A stretch of 64,000 nucleotides of DNA from the NCBI GenBank assembly GCA_947303805.1, contig CAMYZE010000006.1:11216-75215 (forward strand), in the 5' to 3' direction. A model generated the notes under the pieces. The model was given only the letters and a program-made list of their open reading frames with translations. It was not told where the DNA came from and ran no database searches. This document shows positions 1-35,463 of this stretch, in pieces (the first letter of the stretch is position 1; every line of letters starts with the position of its first letter). The stretch comes from an uncultured Clostridia bacterium (lineage in GTDB: Bacteria > Bacillota > Clostridia > Lachnospirales > Lachnospiraceae). The position numbers and the translations under genes are program-made.

Positions 1-312
1 GAAGATTTTATGACGGTCGCTTATATAGGAGTGCTAATAGTCGAAATTATAAAGGCAAATATTGCGGTATTAACTATCATGCTTAGTAATAAGATAGAGA
101 TAGAACCATATTTTTGTCATTTTAAAACTGACTTAAAGAATCCAATACATAGAATATTACTTGCAAACTCTATAACTCTTACTCCTGGAACCATCACAGT
201 AGAGTTGTCAGAAAAAGGCGAGTATAAGGTTCATTGCCTTGATAAGAGTTTTGCTGATGGAATTGATGACTCCATATTTGTAAAAATGCTTAGAAAGATG
301 GAGGAATTATAG
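1..312 (+). CDS. mrpE: Mrp/Mnh-type antiporter complex subunit E (MbhA-like); 5' end cut by window edge
   Basis: ORF 10..312 stays open in frame back to base 1. It is a small protein with a hydrophobic N-part, separated by 1 nt from the F and G subunits that follow, matching the E-F-G order of Mrp/Mbh operons. Confidence 0.6.
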   Translation, partial: EDFMTVAYIGVLIVEIIKANIAVLTIMLSNKIEIEPYFCHFKTDLKNPIHRILLANSITLTPGTITVELSEKGEYKVHCLDKSFADGIDDSIFVKMLRKMEEL

Positions 313-313
313 T

Positions 314-655
314 ATGTCAGTAGTTAGTTTTCAAAATATAGTTTTTGTAGCATCGATGATTATACTTTCACTATCTATAATTGCAATTTTTTTAAGGGCA
401 ATTATAGGTCCAAGAGTTGCAGATAGAATCATTTGTATAAATATGATAGGTACTAAGATAATCATATTTATCTGTATGATAGCAGGATTCTTGAGAGAAG
501 ATTTCCTTATTGATGTGGCACTTGTATATGCACTTATAAACTTTATATCTATGGTTGTGCTCACTTATGCATATGGATATGCTTATGAGAAAAGAGAGTT
601 AGGGAAGGCAAAGAAAGTAGTAAAAAATGTATTAAAAAAAGGAGGCAAAAAATAG
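314..655 (+). CDS. mrpF: Mrp/Mnh antiporter subunit F (MbhB-like)
   Basis: 113 aa with about 3 TM helices. The GPRVADRI motif after the first helix is typical of the MnhF/PhaF family. Position fits between E and G. Confidence 0.7.
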   Translation: MSVVSFQNIVFVASMIILSLSIIAIFLRAIIGPRVADRIICINMIGTKIIIFICMIAGFLREDFLIDVALVYALINFISMVVLTYAYGYAYEKRELGKAKKVVKNVLKKGGKK

Positions 656-656
656 T

Positions 657-986
657 ATGGATATATTGACGATTTTAAGACTTGCTATAGGAACTATACT
701 TATATTCATTGGACTCCTTATAATTGTTCTTGCAATAATTGGAATCTATAGACTTAATTATGTGCTAAATAGAATGCATGTTGCTGCAACTTGTGATACC
801 CTTGGAATGCTATTCATACTTGTTGGGCTAGTATTTTTTGAGGGAATATCATTTACCACTTTGAAACTAGCATGTATAGTAGTGTTCTTTTGGATTTCAA
901 GCCCTATTTGTAGTCACTTGATCGCAAAGATAGAAAGCCAAACTAATAAAAATATAAATAAAGAGTGCGGGGAGATGAAAATATGA
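657..986 (+). CDS. mrpG: Mrp/Mnh antiporter subunit G (MbhC-like)
   Basis: 109 aa with 3 TM helices. It has the YRL..VLNRMH..A.CDTLG pattern of the PhaG/MnhG family. Its stop overlaps the next start (ATGA). Confidence 0.7.
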   Translation: MDILTILRLAIGTILIFIGLLIIVLAIIGIYRLNYVLNRMHVAATCDTLGMLFILVGLVFFEGISFTTLKLACIVVFFWISSPICSHLIAKIESQTNKNINKECGEMKI

Positions 987-1246
987 TTTATATTCAATAT
1001 CTATTAGTAGCATTTTTAGTTATATGTGCACTTTCAGTTTGTATAACAAATAATTTATTAGTTTCATTAATTATTTTTACTGCTTACAGTTTAGTTATGT
1101 CAGTTATATGGTTATTTCTTGAGTCACCTGACCTAGCTATAACTGAAGCTGCAGTTGGAGCTGGTATAACGAGTATATTATTTTTTATAACTCTCGTTAA
1201 GGTAAATAAAATGAATGAGGGGGATAATAGCAATGAGCAGTTTTAA
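983..1246 (+). CDS. DUF4040/MbhD-like small membrane subunit (equivalent to part of the MrpA C-terminus)
   Basis: An ATG at 983 overlaps the mrpG stop; the ORF track begins at an upstream GTG at 965. Product is about 87 aa with 3 TM helices and an ESPDLAITEAAVGAG motif typical of MbhD/DUF4040. Confidence 0.6.
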   Translation: MIYIQYLLVAFLVICALSVCITNNLLVSLIIFTAYSLVMSVIWLFLESPDLAITEAAVGAGITSILFFITLVKVNKMNEGDNSNEQF

Positions 1247-2135
1247 AGAAGTTATTAATTCATTTGTAGAAGGAACCCCTAATACTGATACAGTTATTAA
1301 TGTAAAAGAAAAGAGGACTTATAAGCACCATGAGAAAAGTCTGACTGAGAGACTCACTTCTATGATAGAGAAAGGCGAGAGTAAAGGCGCAAGAAATGCT
1401 TACACTGTCATCGCTGTTATCATGGCAATAGTTATCATAGGTTGTCTTATATATACAGTTTCATCACTTCCACCATTTGGCAATCCAAGTAACCCTGCAA
1501 ATAATGAGGTAGTTAGAAAGTACATAATGGATGGCATAGCCGATACTGGAGCTATCAACTTTGTAGCGGGGATGATCCTTGATTATAGAGCATTTGATAC
1601 TTTGGGTGAATCTACGGTTTTATTTATAGCAGCATCTGCAGTAATTATACTTTTATTTAGAAAGAAGACTAGCGCAGAAGAAAAAGCGGCTGACATTGAA
1701 GAAAAAATATACGAAGATAAGCATGATGTGATACTTAGACATGGAGCACTTATACTTGTTCCATTTACACTTATCTTTGGAATTTATGTAATATTAAATG
1801 GTCACCTATCACCTGGAGGAGGTTTTTCAGGTGGTACAATAATGGGAGCAGCTTTAATCCTTTATAATCTCGCATTTGGTGACAAGTCTACAAAAAAGTT
1901 CTTTAATTTTAAAGTTTATAAAGTTATCACAATAATAGCATTAAGTTTTTATGCGATATCAAAAACTTATTCATTCTATACAGGTGCAAATCATATACAT
2001 TCAATCATACCAAAGGGTATACCTGGAAATTTATTAAGTAGTGGACTCATACTTCCACTTAATATATGTGTAGGAATAGTTGTTGCCTGCACTATGTTTG
2101 GATTCTATTCTTTATTTGATAGGGAGGAAATCTAA
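1233..2135 (+). CDS. mrpB: MnhB-domain membrane subunit (MbhE/F-like, MrpB)
   Basis: The GAINFVAGMILDYRAFDTLGESTVL motif is characteristic of the MnhB domain. A GAGGGGG Shine-Dalgarno lies 8 nt before the ATG at 1233; the track start at 1215 overlaps the previous gene. Confidence 0.7.
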   Translation: MSSFKEVINSFVEGTPNTDTVINVKEKRTYKHHEKSLTERLTSMIEKGESKGARNAYTVIAVIMAIVIIGCLIYTVSSLPPFGNPSNPANNEVVRKYIMDGIADTGAINFVAGMILDYRAFDTLGESTVLFIAASAVIILLFRKKTSAEEKAADIEEKIYEDKHDVILRHGALILVPFTLIFGIYVILNGHLSPGGGFSGGTIMGAALILYNLAFGDKSTKKFFNFKVYKVITIIALSFYAISKTYSFYTGANHIHSIIPKGIPGNLLSSGLILPLNICVGIVVACTMFGFYSLFDREEI

Positions 2136-2518
2136 TGTTTAGTGGACTTATAAATAATTTCTATGAGACGGCAGCTATAATAGTTTTTGGAATTGGCTTC
2201 GTAACTTTACTTCTCAATAGAAATATAATAAAGAAAATTATTGGTTTCAACTTTATGGATACTGCCATTTACCTTTTCCTTGCATCAAAGGGTTATATCT
2301 CTGGTAGGATGGCACCAATCCTTTATAATGAGACAACACCAACACTTACAAAATATATAAATCCAGTTCCGGCAGGACTTGTACTTACTGGTATCGTTGT
2401 ATCTGTAAGTTTCACTGCTTTCTTTTTGGCTATAGCAGTTAGACTTTATAGAGAGTACAATACATTGGATTTACATGAGATAGTATCTATGATGAATAAA
2501 GAGGAGAATGAAGAGTAA
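2135..2518 (+). CDS. mrpC: Mrp subunit C / NuoK-like (MbhG-like)
   Basis: 127 aa with 3 TM helices and NuoK/MnhC-like size and layout. Start and stop are both coupled to neighbouring genes. Confidence 0.65.
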   Translation: MFSGLINNFYETAAIIVFGIGFVTLLLNRNIIKKIIGFNFMDTAIYLFLASKGYISGRMAPILYNETTPTLTKYINPVPAGLVLTGIVVSVSFTAFFLAIAVRLYREYNTLDLHEIVSMMNKEENEE

Positions 2519-4032
2519 TGGATAAATATTATGTAATAAATGATATAGTACAGAATTTTCCTTTTATTTCTATAATACTTTCACTTTTTACAGGAATTCT
2601 TTGTGCAGCAGTTAAACCTAAAAAAGCAATGGGGATCTGCTTCTTTAATCTTATAGTTTGCTTTGTGTTGTCGCTTATGACGCTTATCTATTGTATCAAT
2701 AATGGCGACTACTATGTGTATATGATGGGTCATTTCCCTGCACCTTTTGGAAATGAGATAAGAGTGGGCGTTCTTGAAGCACTTATGGCTACAGCATTTG
2801 CACTTGTAATGCTTTTATCATTACTTGGTGGTCTTAAGCACATTTTTCATGATGTATTACCTGAAAAGCAAAACTACTATTTCTTGATGATGGAGTTACT
2901 TTATACTTCACTTATAGCACTTATTTATACAAATGACTTGTTTACAGCATATGTATTTGTAGAGATAAATACACTTACTGCTTGTGCCATAGTTATGTTA
3001 AAGCATAGTAAAGAAACTTTGGTTGCTACAGCAAGATATCTCATGATGAGCTTACTCGGCTCTGGTCTCATAATGATAGGAATAAGTATTTTATATGACA
3101 TAACTGGACATTTACTTATGTCAAATATAAAAGAGTCAGTAGTAGCACTTGCAGGTGCAGGCCAGTATAGACTTCCTATAGAAGTTGTGATTTGTCTTTT
3201 TGCAATTGGTCTTGGCATAAAGTCAGCACTCTATCCATTCCATTCATGGCTACCTGATGCACATGGATCATCAACATCTGGTTCGTCAGCAGTTTTATCA
3301 GGACTTGTTCTTAAAGCATACATCATTTTACTTATAAAGATGGTATATAGAGTATTTAGTATAGAAGTTATAAGAGGCTCAAAAGTTTTAGATATATTAT
3401 TTGTGCTCGGTGTCCTTGCGATGACAATTGGTTCTATCAAGGCAATCAATTCAAGAGACTTAAAGAGAATGATTGCATATTCATCAGTAGCTCAAATTGG
3501 ATACATTTATCTTGGAATCGGTCTTGGAAATGATGCAGGTATGATAGCAGCTTGCTTTCAAATATTAGTTCATGCATTCACTAAGCCAATGCTATTTAAT
3601 ACTGCAGGTGCATTTATGGATGAAGCACACGGCAGTAGAAAGTTTAAAGATTTAGTGGGAGCAGCACGAAAGAACTTGTGGGCAGGAATAGGATTTGCAG
3701 TCGGAGCATTTTCTATGATAGGTATACCACTCTTTGGTGGATTCGTTGTAAAGTACAATCTTGCACTTGCAGCACTTCCTACAAATAGAGCGGTCCTTGC
3801 ACTAATTGCACTTGTTATAAGTACAGTCTTAAATGCAATATATTATGTGCCAGCACTTATGGTTTTATTTAAGAAAACGAGTACAAGTTCTAAGATAAAA
3901 GTTTTTGCTGATAAGAATGATGTGCCATTTATATTCTCAAACGGAGTATTCATAATTTGCAATTTTGTTTTAGGAATTATGTCACCATTTTTTATAACAC
4001 TTATAACTATGGGATTAAATAAATTTGCTTAA
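2518..4032 (+). CDS. mrpD: Antiporter-like subunit, NuoM/N-MrpD family (copy 1, MbhH-like)
   Basis: 504 aa polytopic protein. Proton_antipo_M hallmarks are present: HSWLPDAH, SGLVLK, MIAYSSVAQIGY. Confidence 0.8.
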   Translation: MDKYYVINDIVQNFPFISIILSLFTGILCAAVKPKKAMGICFFNLIVCFVLSLMTLIYCINNGDYYVYMMGHFPAPFGNEIRVGVLEALMATAFALVMLLSLLGGLKHIFHDVLPEKQNYYFLMMELLYTSLIALIYTNDLFTAYVFVEINTLTACAIVMLKHSKETLVATARYLMMSLLGSGLIMIGISILYDITGHLLMSNIKESVVALAGAGQYRLPIEVVICLFAIGLGIKSALYPFHSWLPDAHGSSTSGSSAVLSGLVLKAYIILLIKMVYRVFSIEVIRGSKVLDILFVLGVLAMTIGSIKAINSRDLKRMIAYSSVAQIGYIYLGIGLGNDAGMIAACFQILVHAFTKPMLFNTAGAFMDEAHGSRKFKDLVGAARKNLWAGIGFAVGAFSMIGIPLFGGFVVKYNLALAALPTNRAVLALIALVISTVLNAIYYVPALMVLFKKTSTSSKIKVFADKNDVPFIFSNGVFIICNFVLGIMSPFFITLITMGLNKFA

Positions 4033-4073
4033 TATATAAATATACGAATAATATAATTTTAGGAGTAACAAAT

Positions 4074-5546
4074 ATGAAGGATTATATGCTTTTATTACCA
4101 GTAGTATTTCCTGCTATCGCAGCACTTTTTACTTTGGTAATAAAGAAACAATTTTCAGACAGAGGTTTTAGAACAGTGTATGTAGGAGTAGTTCTCGCAC
4201 TTACACTTGTATTTAACTTCTATGCAATCTTGAATTACAAAGGACTCACATTGTTTTATCTTACTAAGACTCTACCTATTGAGTTTAGAGTAGATGGTAT
4301 GACTATCTTGTTCAATAGTATAGTAACTATAATGTGGTTCCTTGCAGGAGTATTTTCATTTGAATATATGAAGCATGAGGACAATAATGAAAGCTTCTAT
4401 TTATTCTATTTGCTCACTGAGTCAGTGCTTATAGCTTTAGGAATGGCATCAAACTTCATGACACTTTATTTATTCTATGAGTTCATGACATTCTTGTCAT
4501 TGCCACTTGCACTTCATACAAGAACAAAAGAAGCCATCAGTGGTGGTCTTAAATATTTGTTCTACTCAGTATTTGGTGCGTCACTTGCGCTTGTAGGATT
4601 TTTCTTCATGAATCAATATGGAGATATCACTTTTAGAGCTGGTGGAACTTTGATAGCAAGCAGAGTTTTAGGTAATGAAGCTCTTCTCAAAGTGATTTTC
4701 TTCTTAACAATATTAGGATTTAGTGCAAAAGCAGGTATGTTCCCACTTCACGGATGGCTTCCATCTGCTCACCCTGTAGCACCTGCACCTGCATCAGCAG
4801 TTTTGTCTGGTGTAATCACTAAGGCTGGTGTGCTTGCTATAATAAGAGTTATTTATTATCAAGTTGGTGTAAATTTCCTTCGCGGAACTTGGGTTCAATA
4901 TGCATTTATGACTTTGGCACTCATCACAGTGTTTATGGGTTCTATGATGGCTTATAAAGAAAAAGTTTTGAAGAAGAGACTTGCATATTCATCAGTCAGC
5001 CAAGTTTCTTATGTGCTCTTTGGTCTTTCTACTATGACCCCAATTGGATTTGTAGGAGCACTTCTTCAAGTAGTATTCCACTCAATTGCAAAGAACCTTC
5101 TCTTTATGGGAGCAGGTGCAATTATATATAAAGAGCATAAAACTATGGTTGCAGAACTCAAAGGAATAGGAAAGAATATGCCTATCACCATGTGGTGTTT
5201 CACTATTGGAGGACTTGCACTTGTAGGTATACCACCACTTACAGGTTTTGTAAGTAAATGGTATCTCGCTCAAGGTTCACTTGTATCAGGCGTTCCAACA
5301 TTAAATTATGTAGGACCAATAATTCTTCTTGCATCAGCACTTCTTACAGCAGGATATTTAGTTACTATATCAATTAGTGCATTTATACCTGGTGTAGATT
5401 TTGATTATAAGAAAGTAAAGAATACAGAACCAAATATGTATATGTTATTCCCACTTGTATTGCTTGCAGTAGCTTGTGTTGTATGTGGTACATTCTCAAC
5501 ACCGCTAATAAACTTCTTTACTAATATAGCAAGTACAATTATGTAA
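4074..5546 (+). CDS. mrpD: Antiporter-like subunit, NuoM/N-MrpD family (copy 2)
   Basis: 490 aa with the motifs HGWLPSAHPVAPAPASAVLSG and RLAYSSVSQVSY. Confidence 0.8.
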   Translation: MKDYMLLLPVVFPAIAALFTLVIKKQFSDRGFRTVYVGVVLALTLVFNFYAILNYKGLTLFYLTKTLPIEFRVDGMTILFNSIVTIMWFLAGVFSFEYMKHEDNNESFYLFYLLTESVLIALGMASNFMTLYLFYEFMTFLSLPLALHTRTKEAISGGLKYLFYSVFGASLALVGFFFMNQYGDITFRAGGTLIASRVLGNEALLKVIFFLTILGFSAKAGMFPLHGWLPSAHPVAPAPASAVLSGVITKAGVLAIIRVIYYQVGVNFLRGTWVQYAFMTLALITVFMGSMMAYKEKVLKKRLAYSSVSQVSYVLFGLSTMTPIGFVGALLQVVFHSIAKNLLFMGAGAIIYKEHKTMVAELKGIGKNMPITMWCFTIGGLALVGIPPLTGFVSKWYLAQGSLVSGVPTLNYVGPIILLASALLTAGYLVTISISAFIPGVDFDYKKVKNTEPNMYMLFPLVLLAVACVVCGTFSTPLINFFTNIASTIM

Positions 5547-5552
5547 TTAATG

Positions 5553-5575
5553 GGGCTCGCATAGCTCGCCCGTAC
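5553..5575 (-). repeat. REP-like repeat GTAsGGGCGAG-N5-CGAGCCC (reverse orientation)
   Basis: The + strand reads GGGCTCGCATAGCTCGCCCGTAC, between mrpD copies 2 and 3. It is followed by GAGCCCGGAGG, which supplies the RBS. Confidence 0.7.
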
Positions 5576-5592
5576 AGAGCCCGGAGGAATGA

Positions 5593-7059
5593 ATGATTGT
5601 TTTAGCAGGTATACTGCTTCCAATTGTAGCAGGATTATTAATACCAGTTTTAAAACTTAATAATCAAACAAGAAATGTATATGTTGTAGTTTCAGCATTC
5701 GCATCTAGTGTATTAGCATTTTACATAGCATTTGCAAGCAACTTTACAACATTTACATTACTACATCTTAATAAGATATTTTCAATCGGTTTTAAAATAG
5801 ATGGACTATCAAAAATATTTTTACTAATTATAGCGATACTCTGGCCTATAGCTACATTATATGCTACAGAGTACATGCAACACGAAGAAAACCAAGATTC
5901 ATTTTTTAGATATTATCTTATAGCGTTTGGCATAGCACTTGGACTTTCATTTAGTAAAAATGCTATTACCATGTATCTATTTTATGAGTTACTTACATTT
6001 TTGACACTACCACTTATAATGCATGACTTTTATGATAAAAGAGCACAATATGCTGGTAAAGTCTACTTGATTGTATCAGTATTGGGGGCGGCAACAGCAC
6101 TTATCGGTATTGTAATTTTTACAAGTATTGTTCCATCAGTTGAGTTTGTACAGGGTGGAGTGTTAGAAGCGGTTTCTTATAGAAATAATTATATTTTAAT
6201 AAATATTGCATACATACTTTGTTTTATAGGATTTGGTGTAAAAGCTGCAATTATACCATTTACTTATTGGCTCTCAGTCTGTGGTGTAGCACCAACTCCA
6301 GTGTCAGCACTATTACATGCAGTTGCTGTTGTAAAGGCTGGAACATTTGCAATAATGAGAGTTACTTTCTATCTTTTTGGCAACACGAATATGTATGACT
6401 CATTTGCGAAAAGGGTAGTAACAGTGATAGCTATTGTAACTATAATATACAGTTCTATAATGGCTGTAAGAGAGAAACAGATAAAGAGAAGACTTGCATA
6501 TAGTACGGCTAGCAATCTTTCATACATATTATTTGCTGTAGCACTAATGACAAAATCTGGATTTGCTGCAGGAATGACACATATGATATTTCATGCGATT
6601 ATAAAAATTAACTTATTTTTTATAGCAGGAGCAATAATTATATACTCGCATAGAGAATATGTAGATGATATGAAAGGTATAGCAAAGAAAATGCCAATAG
6701 CGATGTTTGCATTTTTAGTAGCTTCACTTGCCATGGTAGGCATACCACTCACATGTGGTTTCGTAAGTAAGTATGCTCTTATCACTTCGGCAATAGAAGC
6801 AAACACTTTTTTATCGCTTGTAGGAATAGTCGCTTTAGTTATCTCATCACTTTTAACTTTAATATATTTATTTAATATAGTTATAATTGCTTATATACCT
6901 GGTGAAAACTTTGACTACAACACTTTAAAGGATGTAAAAGCACCAGGCAAAGTTATGAGATTTGTGTTTATATTAATTACATTAATGATAATATATTTCG
7001 GCGTTAATTCCGATTCGTTACTAAACTTTATAGAATCAGTAGCGAATGGAATAGCTTAG
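5593..7059 (+). CDS. mrpD: Antiporter-like subunit, NuoM/N-MrpD family (copy 3, more divergent)
   Basis: 488 aa with the motifs APTPVSALLHAVAVVKAG and RLAYSTASNLSY. The usual H.WLP motif is replaced by TYWLSV. Confidence 0.75.
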   Translation: MIVLAGILLPIVAGLLIPVLKLNNQTRNVYVVVSAFASSVLAFYIAFASNFTTFTLLHLNKIFSIGFKIDGLSKIFLLIIAILWPIATLYATEYMQHEENQDSFFRYYLIAFGIALGLSFSKNAITMYLFYELLTFLTLPLIMHDFYDKRAQYAGKVYLIVSVLGAATALIGIVIFTSIVPSVEFVQGGVLEAVSYRNNYILINIAYILCFIGFGVKAAIIPFTYWLSVCGVAPTPVSALLHAVAVVKAGTFAIMRVTFYLFGNTNMYDSFAKRVVTVIAIVTIIYSSIMAVREKQIKRRLAYSTASNLSYILFAVALMTKSGFAAGMTHMIFHAIIKINLFFIAGAIIIYSHREYVDDMKGIAKKMPIAMFAFLVASLAMVGIPLTCGFVSKYALITSAIEANTFLSLVGIVALVISSLLTLIYLFNIVIIAYIPGENFDYNTLKDVKAPGKVMRFVFILITLMIIYFGVNSDSLLNFIESVANGIA

Positions 7060-7067
7060 GAGGCACT

Positions 7068-9185
7068 GTGAAAGGTTCAGTTTTATTATTTTTAGTTCTT
7101 TTTCCAATAGTGGGAGCATTTATATCTTACTTAATTGGTAGGAGAAACAAAACTTTGAGAGACTATTTTGCTGCACTTGTGTGTATCATTGATTTACTTG
7201 TGATGATATTCTTATTTACAGTAGCAGTAAAAGGTGAGGTTTTACATTATTATGTATATAATATCTGTGGTCAATATTTGCATCTAGAGTTAGATGGCTT
7301 TAGAGCAATATATGGAACTATTTGTGCATTTATGTGGTCTATGACTACATTATTTTCACATGAATATTTCCATCACTACAGAAATAGAAATAGATATTAT
7401 TTCTTCTTGCTTTTGACTTTTGCTGGAACGATGGGCGTATTTTTATCAGGTAATCTTTTCACTACATTTGTTTTCTTTGAACTTATGTCAATGGCATCAT
7501 ATGTAATGGTAGTACATGATGAAAAACCAGCTGCTATGAGAGCAGGAGATACTTATCTTATGATAGCAGTTCTCGGCGGTATGGTTATGCTCATGGGGTT
7601 ATTCCTTATGTCAAATGCAGTAGGAACTCTTGAAATAGACGAATTACATGAAGCTGTAACATCTTATCTTGCAGAGGGTGGAAGTGTGAAGACCATCTGG
7701 GCATCTGCAATGTGTATGCTATTTGGTTTTGGAGCAAAGGCAGGTATGTTCCCTGTTCACATTTGGCTCCCAAAGGCTCACCCTGTAGCACCAGCTCCAG
7801 CATCAGCACTTCTTTCTGGTATACTTACCAAATCTGGTGTATATGGAATCTTAATTATTACATCAAGAATATTCTTATATGACCCAACTTATGGAAAATT
7901 AATACTTGGAATTGGTACTATCACAATGTTCCTTGGTGCATTCCTTGCACTATTCTCAGTGGATTTGAAGAGAACACTCGCTTGTTCTTCTATGTCACAA
8001 ATAGGATTTATATTAGTTGCTTGTGGTATGCAAGCACTGCTTGGACATCATAATGCTTATGCAGTTCGTGGCGCACTTCTTCATATGGTAAACCACTCAG
8101 TATTTAAACTTATACTCTTCATGGTTGCCGGTGCTGTATACATGAATTTACATAAGTTAAACTTAAATGATATAAGAGGATTTGGAAGAGGAAAGTGGTT
8201 TTTAAATTTTGCTTATCTTATGGGTTACATAGGTATAGCAGGTGTACCACTTTGGAGTGGATATGTGTCAAAAACTTTAATTCACGATGCCATACTTCAT
8301 TATCTTCATGAACTTCATCATGAAGGTATACATGGTTTTTGGCAATATGATATCTATAGTATAGTAGAATGGATTTTCACTATTTCTGGTGGACTTACGT
8401 TTGCATATATGACAAAACTATATATCGCAGTTTTCTGGGAAAAGAATGTAGATGCATCTGTTCAAAAGAAATATGATGATATGAATAAGACTTATATAAG
8501 TCCGCTTTCAAAATTTGCTATTGGTCTATCAGCACTTATCCCACCACTCTTTGGATTTACTTCTACAATAATGGATAGAGTAAATAAATATAATCTTGGA
8601 CTTATGGATAAACTTGCTGATGTCGGCGAGACATTTATGACTGAAGGTGGACATGCATTTGAACATGCTGATAAGTTCCTTGATATATTTAGTGTGGATT
8701 GCCTTGTAGGCGCAGGCAAGTCACTTATAATTGGAGCATTAGTATACTTATTATTCATAAGAACACTTCTTATGAGAAGAGAAAATGGTAAGAGAGTATA
8801 TGTAAATGTATGGCCAGCTTGGCTTGACCTTGAGGACTCAGTTTATAGACCATTAGTTATGGTGGGACTTGTAAATCTTTGCGGATTTATTTGTTCTATA
8901 TTTGATAATTTTACAACTTTCGTCACACCTATAATCATATTTGTTTTATCATTCATATTTAGAATATGTGATAAATTAGTAGATGGAATAGTATCATTCT
9001 TAAGGTCTACACTTTTTGTCGCAATTAACACAATCAAATCTGGAGATGCATTTGCAGTATTAAATGTAGAATCAGATAGTTCTAAGGCAGTTAAAACTGT
9101 TACTGATAGTTTATCTGTTAGTTTGTTATTATTTTGCTTAGGCTTATGCATAGCACTTATCTATCTCGTAGTGCTTAATGGTTAG
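7068..9185 (+). CDS. mrpA: NuoL/MrpA-like antiporter subunit with long C-terminal extension
   Basis: GTG start. 705 aa with the motifs HIWLPKAHPVAPAPASALLSG and LACSSMSQIGF, plus about 250 extra C-terminal residues with further helices, as in NuoL/MrpA. Confidence 0.75.
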   Translation: MKGSVLLFLVLFPIVGAFISYLIGRRNKTLRDYFAALVCIIDLLVMIFLFTVAVKGEVLHYYVYNICGQYLHLELDGFRAIYGTICAFMWSMTTLFSHEYFHHYRNRNRYYFFLLLTFAGTMGVFLSGNLFTTFVFFELMSMASYVMVVHDEKPAAMRAGDTYLMIAVLGGMVMLMGLFLMSNAVGTLEIDELHEAVTSYLAEGGSVKTIWASAMCMLFGFGAKAGMFPVHIWLPKAHPVAPAPASALLSGILTKSGVYGILIITSRIFLYDPTYGKLILGIGTITMFLGAFLALFSVDLKRTLACSSMSQIGFILVACGMQALLGHHNAYAVRGALLHMVNHSVFKLILFMVAGAVYMNLHKLNLNDIRGFGRGKWFLNFAYLMGYIGIAGVPLWSGYVSKTLIHDAILHYLHELHHEGIHGFWQYDIYSIVEWIFTISGGLTFAYMTKLYIAVFWEKNVDASVQKKYDDMNKTYISPLSKFAIGLSALIPPLFGFTSTIMDRVNKYNLGLMDKLADVGETFMTEGGHAFEHADKFLDIFSVDCLVGAGKSLIIGALVYLLFIRTLLMRRENGKRVYVNVWPAWLDLEDSVYRPLVMVGLVNLCGFICSIFDNFTTFVTPIIIFVLSFIFRICDKLVDGIVSFLRSTLFVAINTIKSGDAFAVLNVESDSSKAVKTVTDSLSVSLLLFCLGLCIALIYLVVLNG

Positions 9186-9236: not shown

Positions 9237-10625
9237 ATGGATCAAAAAGTTAAAAATGCTAGAATACTTTTTAAAGTATTAGCATTATTTACACTCATGT
9301 TTTTTGCTATGTCCGTAGCATATGGTGTCATGAACAACCAAGTAGCTGATATAATACCTGGTTGGATTAGAATTTTAAAGACACCAGCTCAATGTACACA
9401 AGACATGTATGGAGTAAGTGTAGTTGGAACTTATTTCAATATGGCTATGTGTTGCTTACTTATGCTTCTTTACATCGTAGTATGCGGTGGTATGGATGCA
9501 GTAAATAGTGGAACTGTTGCAGCATTCTTCTTGACAGTAGGTTTCTCTTCTTGGGGTATGAATGTCATGAATATGCTTCCACTTATGATTGGCATGCAAG
9601 TTTATGCAGCACTTAAGAAGAAGACTCCAGCTTCTATGATGAATCTTGGTATTTTCGCAACTGCAATTGCACCTATCATGTCAGAAGTAGTTCTTAGATG
9701 GCCTGGATATACAGCACCAGGAGTAGAGGGTTCTACAGGTGTTGCTGCTATGAGCAATTTACCAATTCACCCAGCTGGATTTGTAGTTGCATTTATCATT
9801 GCTATCTTATTCTGTTGTTTCTACCCAGCACTTTGTGCTAAGGCTCCAAATTTCCACTTTGGATGTGATTTATTTAACGCAGGACCTCCAGCAGGTTTCC
9901 TTTGCTTAATGACAATTGGATTCTTATTTAAGGTTACTAATGTTCCACTTCCATCAAATGGACCTGGACAATCTCAAGTAGAAATATTTGGATTTGTATT
10001 AGTTTCTTATTTAATAGTATTTGCAATTTGCTTCATCTTAGGTGTAATGCTTGACAAAGATGCACTTAAGAACTACGGGAAATTAATTAAAGATTCTGGA
10101 CACGGCGCAGATTTCGTAGAGAAGTATGGAATAGGTGCTACTCTTGTAAACTTTGCAGTTTATGGAGTATTCATTCTTGCATTCTATACTGTTATGAAGT
10201 TCTGCTTTGGAGCTAAGTTTAGCGGTCCTATCGCAGGTGTAGTATGGTGTGCCTATACTTGGGTTGCAGCTGGTGCTCATCCATGTAATGTATTACCAAT
10301 AGGTATCGGTTATGTTCTTATATCTTTAGTATCTACAAAACTTTGCCCAGCTTTAGGCATTGGTGCAGAGACAGGAAGACTTGGTATGTCAACAGTTGGT
10401 ATACTTATTGCATTCTCATATTCAACAGGTATGGCTCCTATTTCAGGAAAGTATGGAGTTATCTGGGGAATCATTGCTGGTATAATGCACTTTGCTATAG
10501 TTACTCTTATACCACTTCAATATGACTTCTTTAACTTCTATAATGGAGGATTTACTGCAGGTGTAGTAGCATTTGTATTAGTTCCATTTATAGAGCACTG
10601 GTGGCCAGAAAAGGCTCAAGCATAA
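9237..10625 (+). CDS. Polytopic membrane protein of unknown function (possibly DUF1576 family)
   Basis: 462 aa with about 12 hydrophobic segments and a strong RBS (GGGAGG). The family assignment is from memory only. Confidence 0.4.
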   Translation: MDQKVKNARILFKVLALFTLMFFAMSVAYGVMNNQVADIIPGWIRILKTPAQCTQDMYGVSVVGTYFNMAMCCLLMLLYIVVCGGMDAVNSGTVAAFFLTVGFSSWGMNVMNMLPLMIGMQVYAALKKKTPASMMNLGIFATAIAPIMSEVVLRWPGYTAPGVEGSTGVAAMSNLPIHPAGFVVAFIIAILFCCFYPALCAKAPNFHFGCDLFNAGPPAGFLCLMTIGFLFKVTNVPLPSNGPGQSQVEIFGFVLVSYLIVFAICFILGVMLDKDALKNYGKLIKDSGHGADFVEKYGIGATLVNFAVYGVFILAFYTVMKFCFGAKFSGPIAGVVWCAYTWVAAGAHPCNVLPIGIGYVLISLVSTKLCPALGIGAETGRLGMSTVGILIAFSYSTGMAPISGKYGVIWGIIAGIMHFAIVTLIPLQYDFFNFYNGGFTAGVVAFVLVPFIEHWWPEKAQA

Positions 10626-10664
10626 AATTAACATAGTGTAATATATATGTACAATAAATATGTC

Positions 10665-10760
10665 TTTCCGATATTGTTGATCTAAAAGCATAGCTCATGA
10701 TGACAATACGATAGGGGTGCATTGGAAACGAGGTACCCTCCCGCCTCCGAAAAGGAATGA
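10665..10760 (+). promoter_or_regulatory. Moco (molybdenum/tungsten cofactor) riboswitch candidate
   Basis: It lies in the 191-nt gap upstream of the FDH gene. It contains GGAAAC...CCCUCCCGCCUCCGAAAAGGA, which resembles the conserved CGCCUCC...GAAAGG 3' core of the Moco RNA motif, and a TATTGT/ACAATA stem upstream. Confidence 0.55.
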
Positions 10761-10816
10761 CATTAAATTAAAAAAAACAGGCACTTTCAAAAAGAAAGTC
10801 CCAAAGGAGGAAAAGA

Positions 10817-13729
10817 ATGAAATTAAAATTCAACGGCAGAGAATACGAAGTTGAAAAAGGCGTTAGAGTTTTTAAAGCTGCCAAAGATCTAGGAATTGAT
10901 ATTCCTAATTTTACCATTGATGAGAATTGTCATTTCAATGCTGCTTTTGATGAACCAGAAGATTATGAGTATTCATTAAAAGACATGAGCGTAGTTGAAA
11001 TTAATGGTAAGCTTGTTCGTTCTTATGAGGTAGAAGTAGAAGATGGAATGGACATCTGGACTGATAGTCCAAAATGTAAGGAAAGAAGAAAAGAAATTTT
11101 AGGAAAAGTAGTATCTTTCCATCCACTTGATTGTGTAAACTGTGTAAAGCTTGGAGAATGTAAGTTACAGAAATATTGTGAGATGTATGGTGTCAAAGAG
11201 GGAACTGATAAAGTTTCTTACATCAAGAGACCAAAAGACATGTCCAATAGATTTTATTTCCAAGAGTTTGACAAGTGTATCAGATGTGGTAGATGTGTAA
11301 AGGTATGTAAGGACAAAGTTGGGGTAGAAGCACTTGAGATGGTACAAGATGGTAAGATGAGATATGTTGTACCAAATTTAGATGCTAAACTTTGGAAAGA
11401 GAGAATTGGAAAAGATAGTCCATCTGGCAAAGAAAAAGTAATGGCCATAATAGATGGAAAGGTATCAATGGCAGACAGCACTCGTTGCGTATCTTGCGGT
11501 AACTGTGTATCTGTATGTCCAGTTGGTGCTATTATGCCAAAGGCACAAAATAACTTCAGAGAGTGGGAGACAAAGAAAGTTGTTACCACTTGTACATACT
11601 GTGGTGTTGGATGTCAAATCGAATACCTAGTAAGGGATGGAAAGATTGTTGACGCTAAGCCAGCAAATGGACCATCAAACGAAGCACTCCTTTGTGTTAA
11701 AGGAAAATTCGGTTATGACTTCATAAATCATAAGGATAGATTAAAACACCCTATGATTAGAAAGAATGGAAAACTTGTAGAATCTACTTGGGAAGAAGCT
11801 CTCGATCTTGCTGCAAGTAAGATTAAGGAAGCAAGAGATAACTTCGGACCAGATTCAGTTGCAGGTTTCTCATCAGCTAGAACAATAAATGAGGATAATT
11901 ATTTATTCCAAAAGATGCTTAGAGCAGCAGTTGGCACAAATAATGTTGACCACTGCGCCCGTCTCTGACATAGCTCAACAGTTGCAGGTTTAGCAACTAC
12001 ACTTGGTAGCGGTGCCATGACAAATACCGTAACAGGAATTAAGAAGGCAGATGTAATATTTGTAACAGGTTCAAATACTACAGAAGCTCACCCAGTAATG
12101 GGTATGTATGTGAGACAAGCTAAAAAAGCTGGAAAGAAACTCATAGTAGCTGACCCAGTAAGAATACCTCTTGCTGAGATAGCAGATATATATCTTCAAA
12201 TTACTCCAGGTACATCAGTAGCATTATCAAATGGTATGCTCAATGTTATCTTTGAAGAAGGACTTGAAGATAAAGAATACATTAAAGAACATACTGAGGG
12301 TATAGAAGAATTAAAAGCAATGGTTAAGAAATATACTCCAGAGTATGCAGGAAAAATATGTGGAGTAAATCCAGATGACATAAGAGCAGCTGCAAGAATG
12401 TATGCAAGCTCACACAAGTCATACATAGCATATGCTATGGGTATCACTCAACATATCAATGGTACTGATAACGTTATGAGTTTAAGTAACCTTGCTCTTT
12501 GCACAGGTAACTTTGGTCGTGAAGGTTGTGGTGTAAACCCTCTTCGTGGACAAAATAACGTTCAAGGCGCTTGTGATATGGGTGCTCTTCCTACAGATTA
12601 CCCAGCATATCAAAAAGTATTTAACCCAGAAGTTCAAGCTAAGTTTGAAGCAGCTTGGGGAGTAAAACTTAATCCAAATAAGGGACTTACAGTTACTAAG
12701 ACTATACCAGCTATACTTGAAGATAAGGTTAAAGTACTTTATGTAATGGGTGAGAATCCAGCTGTTTCAGATCCAGATTCTCATCACGTTGCACATGCTC
12801 TTGAGAAAGCATTCTTGATACAACAAGATATTTTCTTAAATGAAACTTCAGAATATGCAGATATAGTATTCCCAGTTAAAGCATTCGCTGAGAAAGATGG
12901 AACTTTCAGTAATACTGAGAGAAGAGTTCAAAGAGTAAGACAGTTGGCAGTTCCAAAAGGCGAGTCAAAAGATGACTGGTGGATCATAATGGAAATCATG
13001 AATAGACTTGGTTACAAGTGCCATTATGATAAAGCAGAAGATATATTCAATGAACTTAGAAAAGTTACACCATCTTATGCTGGTATGACTTATGCTAGAC
13101 TTGAAGGAAAAGGATTACACTGGCCATGTCCAACTGAGGATCATCCAGGAACTCCAATTCTTCATACAAATGGACCTATCAGAAATAAGGGTGTAGGACT
13201 TCTTAAAGCAATTGAGTGGATCGAATCTCCTGAGAGACAAGATAAGAAGTACCCATTCACACTCATTACAGCTCGTATCCTCTATCACTATCATACTAGA
13301 ACTATGACTGATAGAACTCGTGCCATCCACTTTACTGCTCCAAGAAACTGGGTAGAAGTAAATAAAGATGATGCTATGGAGTTAAAATTAAAAGATGGTG
13401 ATTGGTTGAAAGTTACATCTAAGAGAGGTTCAACTGAAGTTGAAGTAAGAGTTGTAGATACATTAGAACCAGGTGTTATGTGGATGCCATTCCACTATGC
13501 AGATGGTGCTAACAACTTATCTGATGCTGAGACACTTGATCCAGTATGTAGCATACCTGGATATAAGGTTATAGGTGTTAAGGTTGAGAAGGTAAGCGGA
13601 GGAGAATCTAAGAAGCTTACTGAAGAAGTTAACAACGAAGAAATTGCGTACTATGAAAATGAAGATCCATCAAGGATCCGTTATAAAGAAGCAGCTGCTG
13701 AGAAATTATTAGCAGGGAAAGGAGAATAA
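10817..13729 (+). CDS. fdhA: Selenocysteine-containing formate dehydrogenase alpha subunit with N-terminal Fe-S domains (970 aa, TGA at 11966..11968 read as Sec)
   Basis: Track ORFs 10817..11968 and 12017..13729 are in the same frame with no other stop between them. The junction reads [16 protein letters not shown], the FDH active-site Sec/Cys context. A molybdopterin-domain CTYCGVGC cluster motif and two CxxCxxCxxxCP motifs lie upstream. Confidence 0.9.
11977..12001 (+). promoter_or_regulatory. Bacterial SECIS hairpin
   Basis: The stem AGTTGC (11980-85) / GCAACT (11993-98) has an AGGTTTA loop containing GGUU. It begins 11 nt after the UGA. Confidence 0.7.
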
Positions 13730-13731
13730 CT

Positions 13732-15498
13732 ATGAGAGAAATTTATGGTGGTCAATTAGACGAGAATGTTAGAGTTGTCATTGATGGTCAAGTTGTTCTT
13801 TGCCCTGAGAACTCTACAATTTTAGAAGCAGCAAAGATGGCAAATATTGAAATTCCAACTCTTTGCTATTTAAAAGGTTTAACTCCAACTGGTGAGTGTG
13901 GTATGTGTGTAGTTGAAATCACATATCCAGATGGAAAGAAGAAGATAGGAAGATCTTGTCGTCTTAAAGCAAAAGACGGCATAGAGGTTGTAACTCATTC
14001 TGAAGAATTAACTAAGCTTCGTGAGAAAGCAATCAAAACTATACTTGATAAACACCCAAATGATTGTCTTACTTGCCAAAAGACAAATGGAAATTGTCAT
14101 TTGCAAGAGGTTACACACTTATTTGGTATCAATCCTGAAGAAAGAAAGGTGCCAAAGCGTACTCTTGATGAAACTAGTGTTGCATTTACTCGTGATATGA
14201 GTAAGTGTATCGCTTGTGGACGTTGTGTAACTGTATGTAATGATGTTCAAAAGATTAAGATCTATGAGATGTATACTGATCCAAAGACTGGAGACAGATA
14301 TCAAAGAGTAAAAGGCGGCAAGATGCTCAGTGATACGAATTGTATCAACTGCGGACAATGTGTAAAGGTATGTCCAGTTGCAGCTCTTACTGAGAAGGAT
14401 AGCATTAAGGAAGCAATTGATGCAATTGATGATCCAAATGTAACAATTGTATGGGAAATGGCACCAGCTATACAAAATACTTTAGGTGAAGAATTTGGAC
14501 TCCCTACAGGTTCTGATGTAACTAGAAAAATAGCTGCAGCCATGAAAGCTCTTGGAGGTTATGCTTATACAACTGATTTCTCAGCAGACTTAACCATCAT
14601 GGAAGAAGGAACAGAGTTTATAGATAGAGTTTCAAACGGCGGAGTCCTTCCTATGATGACATCATGCTGTCCTGGCTGGATAAGATACATGGAGTATAAC
14701 TATCCAGATCAACTTTCACATTTATCAACTTGTAAGTCACCACAACAGATGTTTGGAGCACTTGTTAAAAACTATCTTCCAAAGAAGATAGGCGTTGATG
14801 CTAAAAAGATTTGTCACATTTCTATCATGCCATGTACTGCTAAGAAATTTGAAAGAAGCAGAGAGGAGATGGGTGGTGATTATGGTAAGGATGTAGATAT
14901 AGTTCTTACTACAAGAGAGGCAGCAAAACTCTTTAAGTTTAAAGGAATTGATCTTGCTACTATTAAAGAAGAAGACTTTGACTCACTTATGGGTTGTGGA
15001 ACTGGTGCAGCAAGAATCTTCTCTACAACTGGAGGAGTTATGGAAGCAGCTCTTAGAACAGTTGTATGGAAACTTACAAATGGTAAGATAGATACAATTG
15101 ATTATGTAGCAGCTCGTGGATACAAGGGTGTTAAAGAAGCATCATTAAAGATTGGCGACTTAGAGGTTAAAGTAGCTGTAGTAAATGGTATAGGAAATGT
15201 TAAACCAGTTATGGATGATGTTCGTGCTGGAAAATCACCTTACCACTTCATAGAAGTTATGGCTTGCCCAGGCGGTTGCTTAAATGGAGGTGGTGCACCA
15301 CTTACATCTGAGCCATCACTTGTTGGTGTTAGAATGGATAAGACATATGAGTCTGATAAGAATAATAAGATTCGTAGATCTCATGAAAATCCAGAGATTC
15401 AAGCAATATATGCAGACTATTTGAAAGAGCCATGTGGACACATTTCACACCATATCTTACACACAACTTATACAGATAGAAGTAAAACAGTTAAATAG
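13732..15498 (+). CDS. hydA: [FeFe] hydrogenase, CpI-like multidomain (copy 1)
   Basis: The N-terminus carries [2Fe-2S] cysteines, followed by HPNDCLTCQ and two 4Fe-4S motifs. H-cluster motifs TSCCPGW, MPCTAKKFE and EVMACPGGCLNGGG are present, along with a small-subunit-like C-terminal tail. Confidence 0.9.
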   Translation: MREIYGGQLDENVRVVIDGQVVLCPENSTILEAAKMANIEIPTLCYLKGLTPTGECGMCVVEITYPDGKKKIGRSCRLKAKDGIEVVTHSEELTKLREKAIKTILDKHPNDCLTCQKTNGNCHLQEVTHLFGINPEERKVPKRTLDETSVAFTRDMSKCIACGRCVTVCNDVQKIKIYEMYTDPKTGDRYQRVKGGKMLSDTNCINCGQCVKVCPVAALTEKDSIKEAIDAIDDPNVTIVWEMAPAIQNTLGEEFGLPTGSDVTRKIAAAMKALGGYAYTTDFSADLTIMEEGTEFIDRVSNGGVLPMMTSCCPGWIRYMEYNYPDQLSHLSTCKSPQQMFGALVKNYLPKKIGVDAKKICHISIMPCTAKKFERSREEMGGDYGKDVDIVLTTREAAKLFKFKGIDLATIKEEDFDSLMGCGTGAARIFSTTGGVMEAALRTVVWKLTNGKIDTIDYVAARGYKGVKEASLKIGDLEVKVAVVNGIGNVKPVMDDVRAGKSPYHFIEVMACPGGCLNGGGAPLTSEPSLVGVRMDKTYESDKNNKIRRSHENPEIQAIYADYLKEPCGHISHHILHTTYTDRSKTVK

Positions 15499-15507
15499 TA
15501 AAAATAT

Positions 15508-15540
15508 TCTCGGCTTTTCAATTTTGAAGAGCCGAGGTTT
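15508..15540 (+). other. Intercistronic stem-loop between hydA copy 1 and its ferredoxin (weak terminator or stabiliser)
   Basis: CTCGGCT.../...AGCCGAG forms an 11-12 bp stem followed only by GTTTG. It is absent from the second copy of the duplication. Confidence 0.45.
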
Positions 15541-15584
15541 GAAAAAAACTTATAGTTTGAAACTAAAACTGAAAGGAGAATATC

Positions 15585-15752
15585 ATGTATAAGATAACTG
15601 ACAGATGTGTAAAATGCGGCGCTTGTGATAGCGAATGCCCAAATGGAGCTATCGTAGAAAAGGAAAAACAATTTGACATAGATTACTATAAATGTGTTGA
15701 GTGTGGAAATTGCTACGATGTTTGCCCAAATAGTGCAATAGATGAGGCATAA
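15585..15752 (+). CDS. Clostridial-type 2x[4Fe-4S] ferredoxin (55 aa, copy 1)
   Basis: My own translation is MYKITDRCVKCGACDSECPNGAIVEKEKQFDIDYYKCVECGNCYDVCPNSAIDEA. A GGAG RBS precedes it. It is below the ORF-track size cutoff. Confidence 0.85.
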   Translation: MYKITDRCVKCGACDSECPNGAIVEKEKQFDIDYYKCVECGNCYDVCPNSAIDEA

Positions 15753-15812
15753 TAATTTCGAAACCAAACTTAGTAATAATTTTGTAAAAATAATAAAAAA
15801 AGGAGAACAAAT

Positions 15813-23094: not shown

Positions 23095-23203
23095 TTAAAT
23101 ATAAGAAATATCCCCCCCCTGACGCTTAAGAAGTATCTGAGGCGAAAGATATGGTAGAGAATTTTTAGGAGCAATGACCATATCTTGTGATATGGTCTTT
23201 TTT
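23095..23203 (+). promoter_or_regulatory. Leader with C8 tract, alternative pairings and an intrinsic terminator (attenuator/riboswitch-like)
   Basis: The terminator is GACCATATC-ttgt-GATATGGTC plus T6 (23176..23203). AAGATATGGT (23146-55) can pair with the terminator 5' arm as an antiterminator. ATATC (23108-12) can sequester GATAT. Confidence 0.5.
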
Positions 23204-23209
23204 ATAATT

Positions 23210-30239: not shown

Positions 30240-30246
30240 GCAAATT

Positions 30247-30269
30247 GTATGGGCGAGTTTTACGAGCCC
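30247..30269 (+). repeat. REP-like repeat copy
   Basis: GTATGGGCGAGTTTTACGAGCCC, in tandem with the previous copy. Confidence 0.75.
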
Positions 30270-30283
30270 GAGTAGGTTTAGTT

Positions 30284-30538
30284 ATGAATAGAATAGCAAC
30301 AATTAGTATTATTGTAGAACAAAATAATAAAGAGACAGTACAAAAAGTCAATGACTTATTGCATGAGTTTCAAGATGTGATTTTAGGTAGGATGGGAATA
30401 CCTGACAAGACTCACAATGTAAACATAATAAGCGTTGCAATGTGTGCTGATGAAGATAAAATCAATGCGCTTACAGGTAAGCTTGGCAGAATAGATGGTA
30501 TAAGTGCAAAAACACTTTATTCTAAAAATTCATATTAA
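30284..30538 (+). CDS. TM1266-family small ACT/NikR-C-like protein (iron-only hydrogenase system regulator family)
   Basis: 84 aa, MNRIATISIIVE...GRMGIP...ISV..C...INALTGKLGRI. The track start (TTG at 30245) reads through a repeat element, so the ATG at 30284 is preferred. Confidence 0.6.
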   Translation: MNRIATISIIVEQNNKETVQKVNDLLHEFQDVILGRMGIPDKTHNVNIISVAMCADEDKINALTGKLGRIDGISAKTLYSKNSY

Positions 30539-30662
30539 TTTAAAATATGTCGTGGTATAAGGAATAGGTGCAGCATTAAAAGCAGCAACAATTTTAGCAA
30601 ATCGCAGTTGAAATAAAAATAAAAGTTGAACTTTAAAATTTGCAAGTATATAGAGGTGACTT

Positions 30663-31703: not shown

Positions 31704-31714
31704 AGGAGGGCTAT

Positions 31715-35441: not shown

Positions 35442-35463
35442 GATAATTGCTTTTGGTACTCTG

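Follow-up and report, generated by a model that had tools for sequence, protein, structure and literature searches.

Gene content and organization of the locus

The window examined here is a stretch of 64,000 nucleotides from an uncultured Clostridia bacterium of the Lachnospiraceae (GenBank assembly GCA_947303805.1, contig CAMYZE010000006.1, positions 11,216 to 75,215 of the forward strand), and coordinates given without a locus label refer to it. Its bases 1-9185 hold ten co-oriented, tightly packed membrane open reading frames (ORFs) on the + strand, in which Pfam finds homologues of all seven subunit families (A-G) of the Mrp antiporters in one tight cluster. The gene order is EFG-(A^C)-B-C-D-D-D-A^N, which through the first D gene is that of MbhA-H in the archaeal membrane-bound hydrogenase (MBH). 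The genes, with TM standing for transmembrane helix and aa for amino acid residues, are as follows:

1..312, + strand: mrpE/mbhA-like gene (PF01899 MNHE, 5e-23, profile positions 46-131 of 145)
314..655, + strand: mrpF/mbhB-like gene, 113 aa (PF04066 MrpF_PhaF, 3e-12)
657..986, + strand: mrpG/mbhC-like gene, 109 aa (PF03334 PhaG_MnhG, 2e-20)
983..1246, + strand: MbhD/DUF4040 gene, equivalent of MrpA TM17-19 (PF13244, 3e-18)
1233..2135, + strand: MbhE-MnhB/MrpB fusion (MbhE-B), 300 aa (PF20501 MbhE, 3e-10; PF04039 MnhB, 3e-24)
2135..2518, + strand: mrpC/NuoK-like gene, 127 aa (PF00420 Oxidored_q2, 1e-19)
2518..4032, + strand: antiporter-like subunit D1, 504 aa (PF00361, 6e-50; without a Proton_antipo_N domain)
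4074..5546, + strand: antiporter-like subunit D2, 490 aa (PF00361, 1e-54; PF00662)
5593..7059, + strand: antiporter-like subunit D3, 488 aa (PF00361, 3e-54; PF00662)
7068..9185, + strand: terminal antiporter-like subunit, 705 aa (PF00361, 5e-53)

The window start removes the 5' end of mrpE, of which 103 aa are present compared with 154 aa in relatives (about 51 codons missing). The ORF of the fusion gene opens at 1215 with an ATG at 1233, and relatives have the same length of 300 aa; its MbhE part is the equivalent of MrpA TM20-21, and thus the MrpA equivalents are spread over three genes, namely the 705-aa protein, MbhD and the MbhE-B fusion. The E-values of the four Proton_antipo_M (PF00361) proteins span 6e-50 to 1e-55. 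Each of the six junctions from mrpE to D1 is an overlap or a 1-nt gap: E/F and F/G are separated by 1-nt spacers, G and MbhD share ATGA at 983-986, MbhD overlaps MbhE-B if the latter starts at 1233, and B/C and C/D1 have one base in common. The junctions among the four large subunits are spacers of 41, 46 and 8 nt.

The four antiporter-like subunits

All four large subunits possess the TM5 Glu, TM7 Lys, TM8 Lys, TM11 His/Lys and TM12 Lys of the proton path, and these residues are 96-100% conserved across 72-81 species. Conservation reaches 100% in 72 D1 sequences for the TM5 Glu and for the Lys of TM7, TM8 and TM12, and in 75 D2 sequences for the key residues. With identities of 38% between D2 and D3, 30-32% between the 705-aa protein and D2 or D3, and 26-28% between D1 and the others, the four read as old paralogs. 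The best solved relative of each is MbhH of Pyrococcus furiosus. D1 is of the MrpD/NuoN/MbhH type (MbhH, 2e-41, followed by MbsH and MrpD), D2 matches MbhH at 3e-57, and D3 gives near-equal scores for MbhH, NdhF, NuoL and MrpA.

D3 carries the PTPVSALLH motif of NuoL and MrpA but has no lateral helix. Its TM8 has both a His and a Lys (PTPVSALLHAVAVVK), a combination found in D3 only, with the His aligned to the TM8 His of NdhF; across 79 sequences, conservation within LLHAVAVVK is 96-100%. MrpA is described as marked by a TM8 His in addition to the Lys, with NuoL keeping only the His (eLife Mrp paper, PMC7419157), and D3 is on this basis assigned to the MrpA/NuoL-like type. In place of H.WLP, D3 reads FTYWLSV, and every canonical charged residue is kept. 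The His of this motif is variable across the whole D3 family, with only the Pro-to-Ser change being specific to the lineage of the window. Degeneration of D3 is ruled out by the conservation of all its key residues, and the protein is best described as a conserved, differentiated subunit of MrpA/NuoL-like type, not a decaying copy.

The AlphaFold2 model of the 705-aa subunit (mean predicted local distance difference test score, pLDDT, 75.6) comprises a 14-TM core, an extra TM helix, a helix of 62 residues (approximately 588-649) or longer, and a C-terminal TM at 684-704. The long helix is amphipathic: its hydrophobic moment is 1.31, compared with 0.65 +/- 0.15 in shuffled sequences. The best full-length Foldseek matches are MrpA (6z16_A, 5e-19), NuoL and NdhF, that is, the subunits known to bear a lateral helix. 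Full-length relatives occur in many gut and rumen Firmicutes, and the extension beyond the TM12 Lys measures 263-369 aa in 81 orthologues.

Small subunits and sodium-path motifs

The best solved relatives of the MbhD protein are MbsD (6u8y_D, 7e-12) and MbhD (6cfw_D), with both of which its PDLAITEAAVG motif aligns. The closest solved relative of MbhE-B is MbsE (6u8y_E, 1.4e-24), and the motifs DYRAFDTLGE and GHLSPGGGF are conserved; MrpF carries GPRVADR. The sodium-path residues named for Bacillus pseudofirmus (PMC9568556) were matched by eye: PDLAITEAAVG to MrpA E687, DTLGE to MrpA E780, GHLSPGGGF to MrpB H34/F41 and ADR to MrpF D38. Motif alignments covered MbhD/MbsD, MbsE/MbhE and MrpB, while the MrpA E687 and E780 matches and the Asp38 match of MrpF are correspondences by eye, not aligned residue by residue. 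The presence of these motifs in the small subunits supports cation/proton exchange as the activity of the complex.

Much of this was anticipated in a preliminary description of the window made from the sequence alone. It had described ten membrane genes in the order E, F, G, DUF4040, MnhB, C, D, and the Pfam matches are those it predicted; the Mbh gene order is likewise borne out, the small subunits being nearest to archaeal MbsD/MbhD and MbsE/MbhF. Its count of four antiporter-like subunits against two in canonical Mrp stands, as does its 705-aa NuoL/MrpA-like subunit with a long C-terminal extension, for which MrpA, NuoL and NdhF are the structural matches. It had called all ten genes translationally coupled, which is right for the six junctions up to D1 but not for the large subunits with their spacers of 41, 46 and 8 nt. 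It had also noted TYWLSV in place of H.WLP in the third paralog, as a hint of subfunctionalisation; the replacement is real, but the paralog is not decaying, since the charged residues are kept and the His position varies family-wide.

Distribution of the four-pump layout

Relatives were collected from one genome per species, with at least 521 confirmed in 600 stretches, and the best 80 loci were kept, in which ORFs were called and then compared with the window proteins. These loci belong to Lachnospiraceae, Oscillospiraceae and Erysipelotrichaceae, and include the cultured species Hungatella hathewayi and Coprococcus catus as well as Schaedlerella arabinosiphila. All 70 complete loci share the ten genes and their order, all on one strand, and each has exactly four antiporter-like ORFs; the remaining 10 are cut by contig ends.

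The surroundings of the operon vary. Unbiased clustering of 651 flank ORFs from the 80 species loci left every neighbour family confined to 14 loci or fewer. The commonest are D-Ala carboxypeptidase, TrmB, thioredoxin, MatE, HtrA and similar proteins, and the ten commonest families are non-redox. A redox neighbour conserved across the family is therefore ruled out at the level of these clusters, rarer flank ORFs lying outside the scan. A directed search for formate dehydrogenase (FDH), hydrogenase, HycB, molybdenum/tungsten cofactor (Moco), selenocysteine (Sec), fhs/folD and DUF1576 genes found them near 2 of the 80 loci, L007 and L079. Since the 70 complete loci are identical in layout and their flanks are variable and non-redox, the four-pump layout is the standard Mrp of Lachnospiraceae, Oscillospiraceae and relatives, and it generally stands alone. 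The preliminary description had presented the layout as unusual, which it is not, being standard in at least 70 other species, and this is one of the two outcomes that it had itself named as counting against its reading; neither do orthologous clusters always sit beside fdh or hyd genes, as it had suggested checking.

The sizeable ORFs of the entire 64 kb window include no NuoB/C/D/H/I-like or NiFe hydrogenase gene, and no connecting subunits of NuoH/MbhM-like or NuoB/NuoD-like type were found in the window or in the upstream regions of relatives. A redox module upstream of base 1, where the preliminary description had advised looking, is ruled out through the relatives, which have selA, selB, moaA and mobA there, or YedE/TusA genes, or unrelated genes. 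The absence of a redox module in cis thus holds for NuoBCDHI and NiFe subunits, but the same description had overlooked an FDH and two [FeFe] hydrogenases 1.6 kb downstream.

DUF1576 and the downstream formate/hydrogen genes

Downstream of the operon lie a DUF1576 gene and features of formate, hydrogen and cofactor metabolism:

9237..10625, + strand: DUF1576 polytopic membrane protein, 462 aa (PF07613, 3e-50)
10654..10773, + strand: Moco riboswitch (Rfam RF01055, 54.2 bits against a gathering threshold of 36, E 3e-10)
10817..13729, + strand: selenocysteine formate dehydrogenase (Pfam on two halves; UGA at 11966-11968)
13732..17591, + strand: two tandem monomeric-type [FeFe] hydrogenases, 588 and 592 aa (Fe_hyd_lg_C, 4e-89 and 9e-94; Fe_hyd_SSU)
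23174..24004, further downstream: FdhD
30245..32932: TM1266-like hydrogenase regulator, radical-SAM gene and HydF
34419..39906: PBP_like_2/permease/ABC transporter, then MoeA and a MoeA-PBP fusion

DUF1576 starts 51 nt past the 705-aa gene, the gap contains no terminator-like site, and co-transcription with the Mrp genes is probable. The family is small, with 625 clusters at 50% identity among 1.84 billion representatives. Its AlphaFold2 model is confident (pLDDT 88; predicted TM-score, pTM, 0.89), and no significant match was found in the PDB, the best E-value being 0.06 and the urea-transporter matches having TM-scores of only 0.33-0.43. No mention of DUF1576 was found in the literature, and there is no NCBIfam model of it.

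The FDH was listed as two ORFs that form one gene, and read-through gives VDHCARL*HSSTVAG, in which the asterisk is the in-frame UGA. Its domains are 2Fe-2S, NuoG-like 4Fe-4S and ferredoxin followed by Mo/W-bisPGD. Both hydrogenases have N-terminal Fe-S domains and are taken to be soluble from their domain content. Sets of the hydrogen-dependent CO2 reductase (HDCR) type combine FdhF with HycB-type ferredoxin subunits and a HydA2-type hydrogenase; in the window, the FDH has fused Fe-S domains and is followed by two hydrogenases of about 590 aa, and there are no HycB genes. Together with the genes at 30245-32932, the hydrogenases at 13732-17591 form a hydrogenase maturation neighbourhood. The ABC transporter at 34419-39906 is probably one for molybdate or tungstate; metal ABC transporters also occur downstream in the window.

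A promoter-like site (TTAACA-16-TACAAT, 10628-10655) lies beside the Moco riboswitch, which marks a separately regulated downstream unit. On the + strand, from the Mrp genes through the second hydrogenase, no terminator-like site precedes 17829, and the first strong terminator-like stem is at 17829-17851 (10 pairs, 7 of them G-C). In the window overall, the counts of promoter and terminator scans were not above shuffle expectation, and only this strong terminator and the riboswitch-adjacent site were used.

The formate linkage in relatives

DUF1576 follows the Mrp genes in eight related loci and adjoins them on the opposite strand in L079. Where MbhE-B is approximately 60-94% identical to that of the window, the ten genes are always followed by DUF1576. 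After it come [MOSC]-Sec-FDH in L003, L006, L087 and L089, and Moco and ModA-like genes without an adjacent FDH in GCA_016648615 and L088, while L007 shows mobA-Mrp-DUF1576 and then the contig end. Another locus, L093, was found through its DUF1576 (37% identical to that of the window) and has the same Mrp-DUF1576-FDH arrangement; at 12076-20455, after Mrp-DUF1576-MOSC, it encodes an HDCR-type set of Sec-FdhF, two HycB-like polyferredoxins and a 462-aa [FeFe] hydrogenase, together with selA, selB and a gene for tRNA-Sec. The Mrp-DUF1576-FDH synteny is conserved in the subclade of the window.

Upstream of mrpE, the relatives have mobA with or without moaA/selAB, a divergent Moco operon, or YedE/TusA/selenium-carrier genes. 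mobA abuts or overlaps mrpE and is translationally coupled to it in L003 and L087; in L003 the mobA stop overlaps the mrpE start. The Moco riboswitch also precedes the FDH gene in L003, L006, L087, L089 and L093. In L003 a further one at 7763-7885 precedes mobA-mrpE, whereas none was found at E <= 1 before the mobA/moaA-Mrp operon in L087 and L088. A separate observation is a conserved peptide of 43-53 aa, translationally coupled to mrpE in three loci only, with an N-terminal membrane helix, the sequence YVSADVNxGHGPGYVAEE and a His-rich tail:

L006, 8457-8618: mrpE-coupled peptide
L089, 8495-8629: mrpE-coupled peptide
L093, 650-781: mrpE-coupled peptide

In L079, a Faecousia genome, the region 760-20304 has the ten Mrp genes between fchA-folD and an opposite-strand DUF1576 of a different subfamily from that of the window, near an FDH. 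L092, whose FchA is 93% identical to that of L079, has fhs-fchA-folD-DUF1576 at 6294-11365 without Mrp genes. The pairing of Mrp with DUF1576 has thus formed at least twice, and the ten-gene unit, present in L079 and absent from L092, behaves like a movable cassette. More distant DUF1576 homologues (33-41% identity) directly follow fhs-fchA-folD or fhs, in L094 behind a tetrahydrofolate (THF) riboswitch at 8040-8135:

L090, 10001-11302: distant DUF1576 gene
L092, 10001-11365: distant DUF1576 gene
L094, 10001-11368: distant DUF1576 gene

This association of DUF1576 with formate genes, taken in the reverse direction, comes from a handful of loci. Since FDH and formate-THF ligase have formate in common, the simplest assignment for DUF1576 is that of a formate transporter or channel, and its gene contexts suggest it as a candidate for that function.

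Comparison with known complexes

Compared with Mrp of groups 1 and 2 (B. pseudofirmus 7QRU, Anoxybacillus flavithermus 6Z16, Dietzia 7D3U), the window complex has the same A-G subunit families, and likewise the Lys/Glu proton-path residues, the presumed sodium-path motifs, a lateral helix with an anchor on the distal pump and no redox module. It differs from them in having four antiporter-like subunits instead of two and MrpA split in three genes instead of one polypeptide, in its gene order, and in sequences closer to archaeal Mbh/Mbs than to Bacillus Mrp. The membrane arms of P. furiosus MBH (6CFW) and of the sulfane reductase MBS (6U8Y) share with it the MbhA-H order and the separate MbhD and MbhE-like pieces, and MbsE is a comparable fusion of MbhE-MrpB type. 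In contrast to both, the window lacks a hydrogenase or sulfane-reductase module of MbhI-N or NuoB, C, D, H and I type. The redox module of MBH occupies the place of the MrpA-like subunit (PMC7419157); on that side, the gene order indicates that the window complex would have three further pump subunits instead.

Group 3 Mrp is defined by all subunit types in non-canonical order with duplicated mrpD- or mrpB-like genes (PMC5703873), and these features are found here. The cyanobacterial mrpCD1D2EFGAB and the Microbacterium mrpFGBCDDAE clusters are similarly irregular in order, stand alone and have extra mrpD copies, and the group 3 cluster of Aphanothece was shown to act as a Na+/H+ antiporter (PMC5703873). 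These examples have three pumps (two MrpD and MrpA), whereas the window has four, which are differentiated and end in a much longer C-terminal extension.

The pump arm also reaches four antiporter-like subunits in some variants of complex I (Chadwick et al., 2018, as cited in PMC7419157). They are redox-driven NADH:quinone oxidoreductases, whereas no redox module is present here. NuoL of these four-pump enzymes reportedly has a longer lateral helix. The window cluster is a four-pump stand-alone form, four pumps being otherwise known only in some complex I variants; no description of a four-subunit stand-alone Mrp and no bacterial Mrp linked to FDH or HDCR was found in the literature, and a paper on Natranaerobius contains no cluster architecture.

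The Fdh-Mbh-Mrp formate hydrogenlyase of Thermococcus onnurineus, an organism that interconverts formate with H2 and CO2 (PMC9097184), resembles the window in placing an Mrp-type module beside FDH and a hydrogenase. There, the enzyme is a membrane-bound [NiFe] hydrogenase with NuoBCDHI-like subunits, whereas here it is of the [FeFe] type and the linkage is confined to one subclade.

Proposed function

The locus probably encodes a self-contained Mrp-type (CPA3) monovalent cation/proton antiporter on the Mbh/Mbs plan, with an enlarged proton arm of four subunits. The physical order, following the genes, would be MrpC, D1, D2, D3 and the 705-aa subunit, whose lateral helix would run back along D3-D1 to its C-terminal anchor, as that of NuoL clamps NuoM and NuoN. 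Having no redox module, the complex would be driven by an existing ion gradient, and Na+ (or K+) passing through the site in the small subunits would be exchanged against protons passing through up to four Lys/Glu channels. The number of H+ per cation would probably be higher than in canonical Mrp, for which a ratio of approximately 2 has been proposed (PMC7419157, PMC9568556). In the lineage of the window, the operon has acquired a DUF1576 gene, encoding a candidate formate channel, and lies within a selenocysteine/Moco/FDH/[FeFe] hydrogenase locus, where it probably helps to keep pH and Na+ in balance while formate is interconverted with H2 and CO2.

Several observations weigh against this proposal or parts of it. 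Confidence in the lateral helix is moderate (pLDDT approximately 55-65, falling below 50 at residues 642-690), and the length of the extension varies among orthologues that have an equal number of subunits. All ten proteins match Mrp/Mnh equivalog models of NCBIfam, but every score is under the curated cut-off (for NF006236, 309 bits compared with 663), which marks a divergent lineage. The FDH unit comes with a promoter-like site and a riboswitch of its own, only 2 of the 80 sampled species loci show the formate link, which is thus a minority trait of the family, and the frequencies themselves are approximate, coming from the best 80 of at least 521 relatives.

The strongest competing explanation is that of a pure housekeeping Na+/H+ antiporter beside which DUF1576, FDH and Moco genes lie by historical accident. 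In 78 of 80 species the flanking genes vary and are mostly of housekeeping type, the regulatory signals of the FDH unit are separate, and GCA_016648615 and L088 retain Mrp-DUF1576 with no FDH adjacent. We nevertheless consider it unlikely, as the pairing of Mrp with DUF1576 persists, despite rearranged flanks, in loci with MbhE-B identities of approximately 60-94% to the window and in L093, where it is DUF1576 that is only 37% identical. It arose a second time at the one-carbon locus of L079, with a different DUF1576 subfamily on the opposite strand and with L092 as the counterpart lacking Mrp, and mobA is translationally coupled to mrpE in L003 and L087.

A bolder extension of the antiporter proposal would give the complex four working channels and 3-4 H+ per Na+, acting with DUF1576 as a new formate channel in a cycle of this lineage. 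Electrogenic formate uptake would come first; a cytoplasmic FDH/[FeFe] hydrogenase, working as an HDCR-like hydrogenlyase, would then consume an internal proton, building up membrane potential; and the high-ratio Mrp would finally turn this potential into a Na+ gradient and re-acidify the cytoplasm. If true, such a cycle would allow gut Clostridia to conserve energy from the near-equilibrium reaction of formate with H2 plus CO2 and to do so with no membrane-bound hydrogenase involved, but as a whole it is decidedly unlikely.

It is very unlikely, too, that the Mrp genes encode the membrane arm or anchor of a formate/hydrogen energy-converting complex, with FDH-[FeFe] hydrogenase or HDCR filaments docked on Mrp-DUF1576. 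Just as improbable is the coupling this would entail, in which formate interconversion would drive ion translocation directly, a bacterial [FeFe] analogue of the Thermococcus Fdh-Mbh-Mrp system. The subclade keeps Mrp, DUF1576 and FDH together, with the HDCR-type set of L093 in addition, and the run from the Mrp genes to the end of the second hydrogenase is free of terminator-like sites, but the FDH starts behind a riboswitch and a promoter-like site of its own. The riboswitch of L003 ahead of a mobA that overlaps the mrpE start would also fit docking. Precedents exist in the HDCR of T. kivui, reported as membrane-anchored nanowires (Dietrich et al., 2022, as cited in PMC12905484), and in the T. 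onnurineus Fdh-Mrp-Mbh complex (PMC9097184); against them, no NuoH/MbhM-like or NuoB/NuoD-like connectors were found in the window or among the common flank families. Furthermore, FDH, hydrogenase and DUF1576 genes are all missing from the vicinity of 78 of 80 species loci, and the enzymes downstream differ among relatives (a long FDH with two hydrogenases of about 590 aa, a short FdhF, the HDCR type or none).

An inorganic-carbon pump in the style of DAB or of cyanobacterial NDH-1/Cup, in which vectorial CO2/bicarbonate conversion with DUF1576 as partner would feed or drain FDH, is extremely improbable: PF00361 subunits are so used in DAB2 (PMC13144422), and a CO2/formate enzyme adjoins, but a search of the window found neither a DabA/CupA-like nor a carbonic-anhydrase-like protein, the full set of Mrp small subunits with sodium-path motifs points to cation exchange, and DUF1576 also occurs beside fhs/folD, which use formate, not CO2.

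Significance

The pump arm of complex I is considered to descend from Mrp, and the number of ions moved per antiporter-like subunit is debated. A stand-alone antiporter with four pumps and no redox head would be a natural experiment in this respect, as its H+/Na+ ratio would test the idea of one proton per subunit per cycle. Being common in Clostridia of the human gut and rumen, including cultured species, the complex is open to direct study, and it probably shapes the Na+/H+ energetics of fermenters that run both sodium and proton circuits. DUF1576, which tracks formate-using genes in two independent contexts, offers a testable candidate formate transporter where none has been assigned.

Other features of the window

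Further observations concern the rest of the window. A NifH-like gene and two nitrogenase-component-1-like (NifD/K-type) genes lie at 25832-29062, flanked by FecCD-type ABC transporters and periplasmic binding proteins. Another primary ion pump, a membrane-bound H+/Na+-translocating pyrophosphatase (PF03030, 2.5e-262), is encoded at 58844-60922. Across 1-64000, nearly all sizeable ORFs are on the + strand, the GC skew is positive throughout and the cumulative skew rises steadily, which is consistent with a leading-strand segment.

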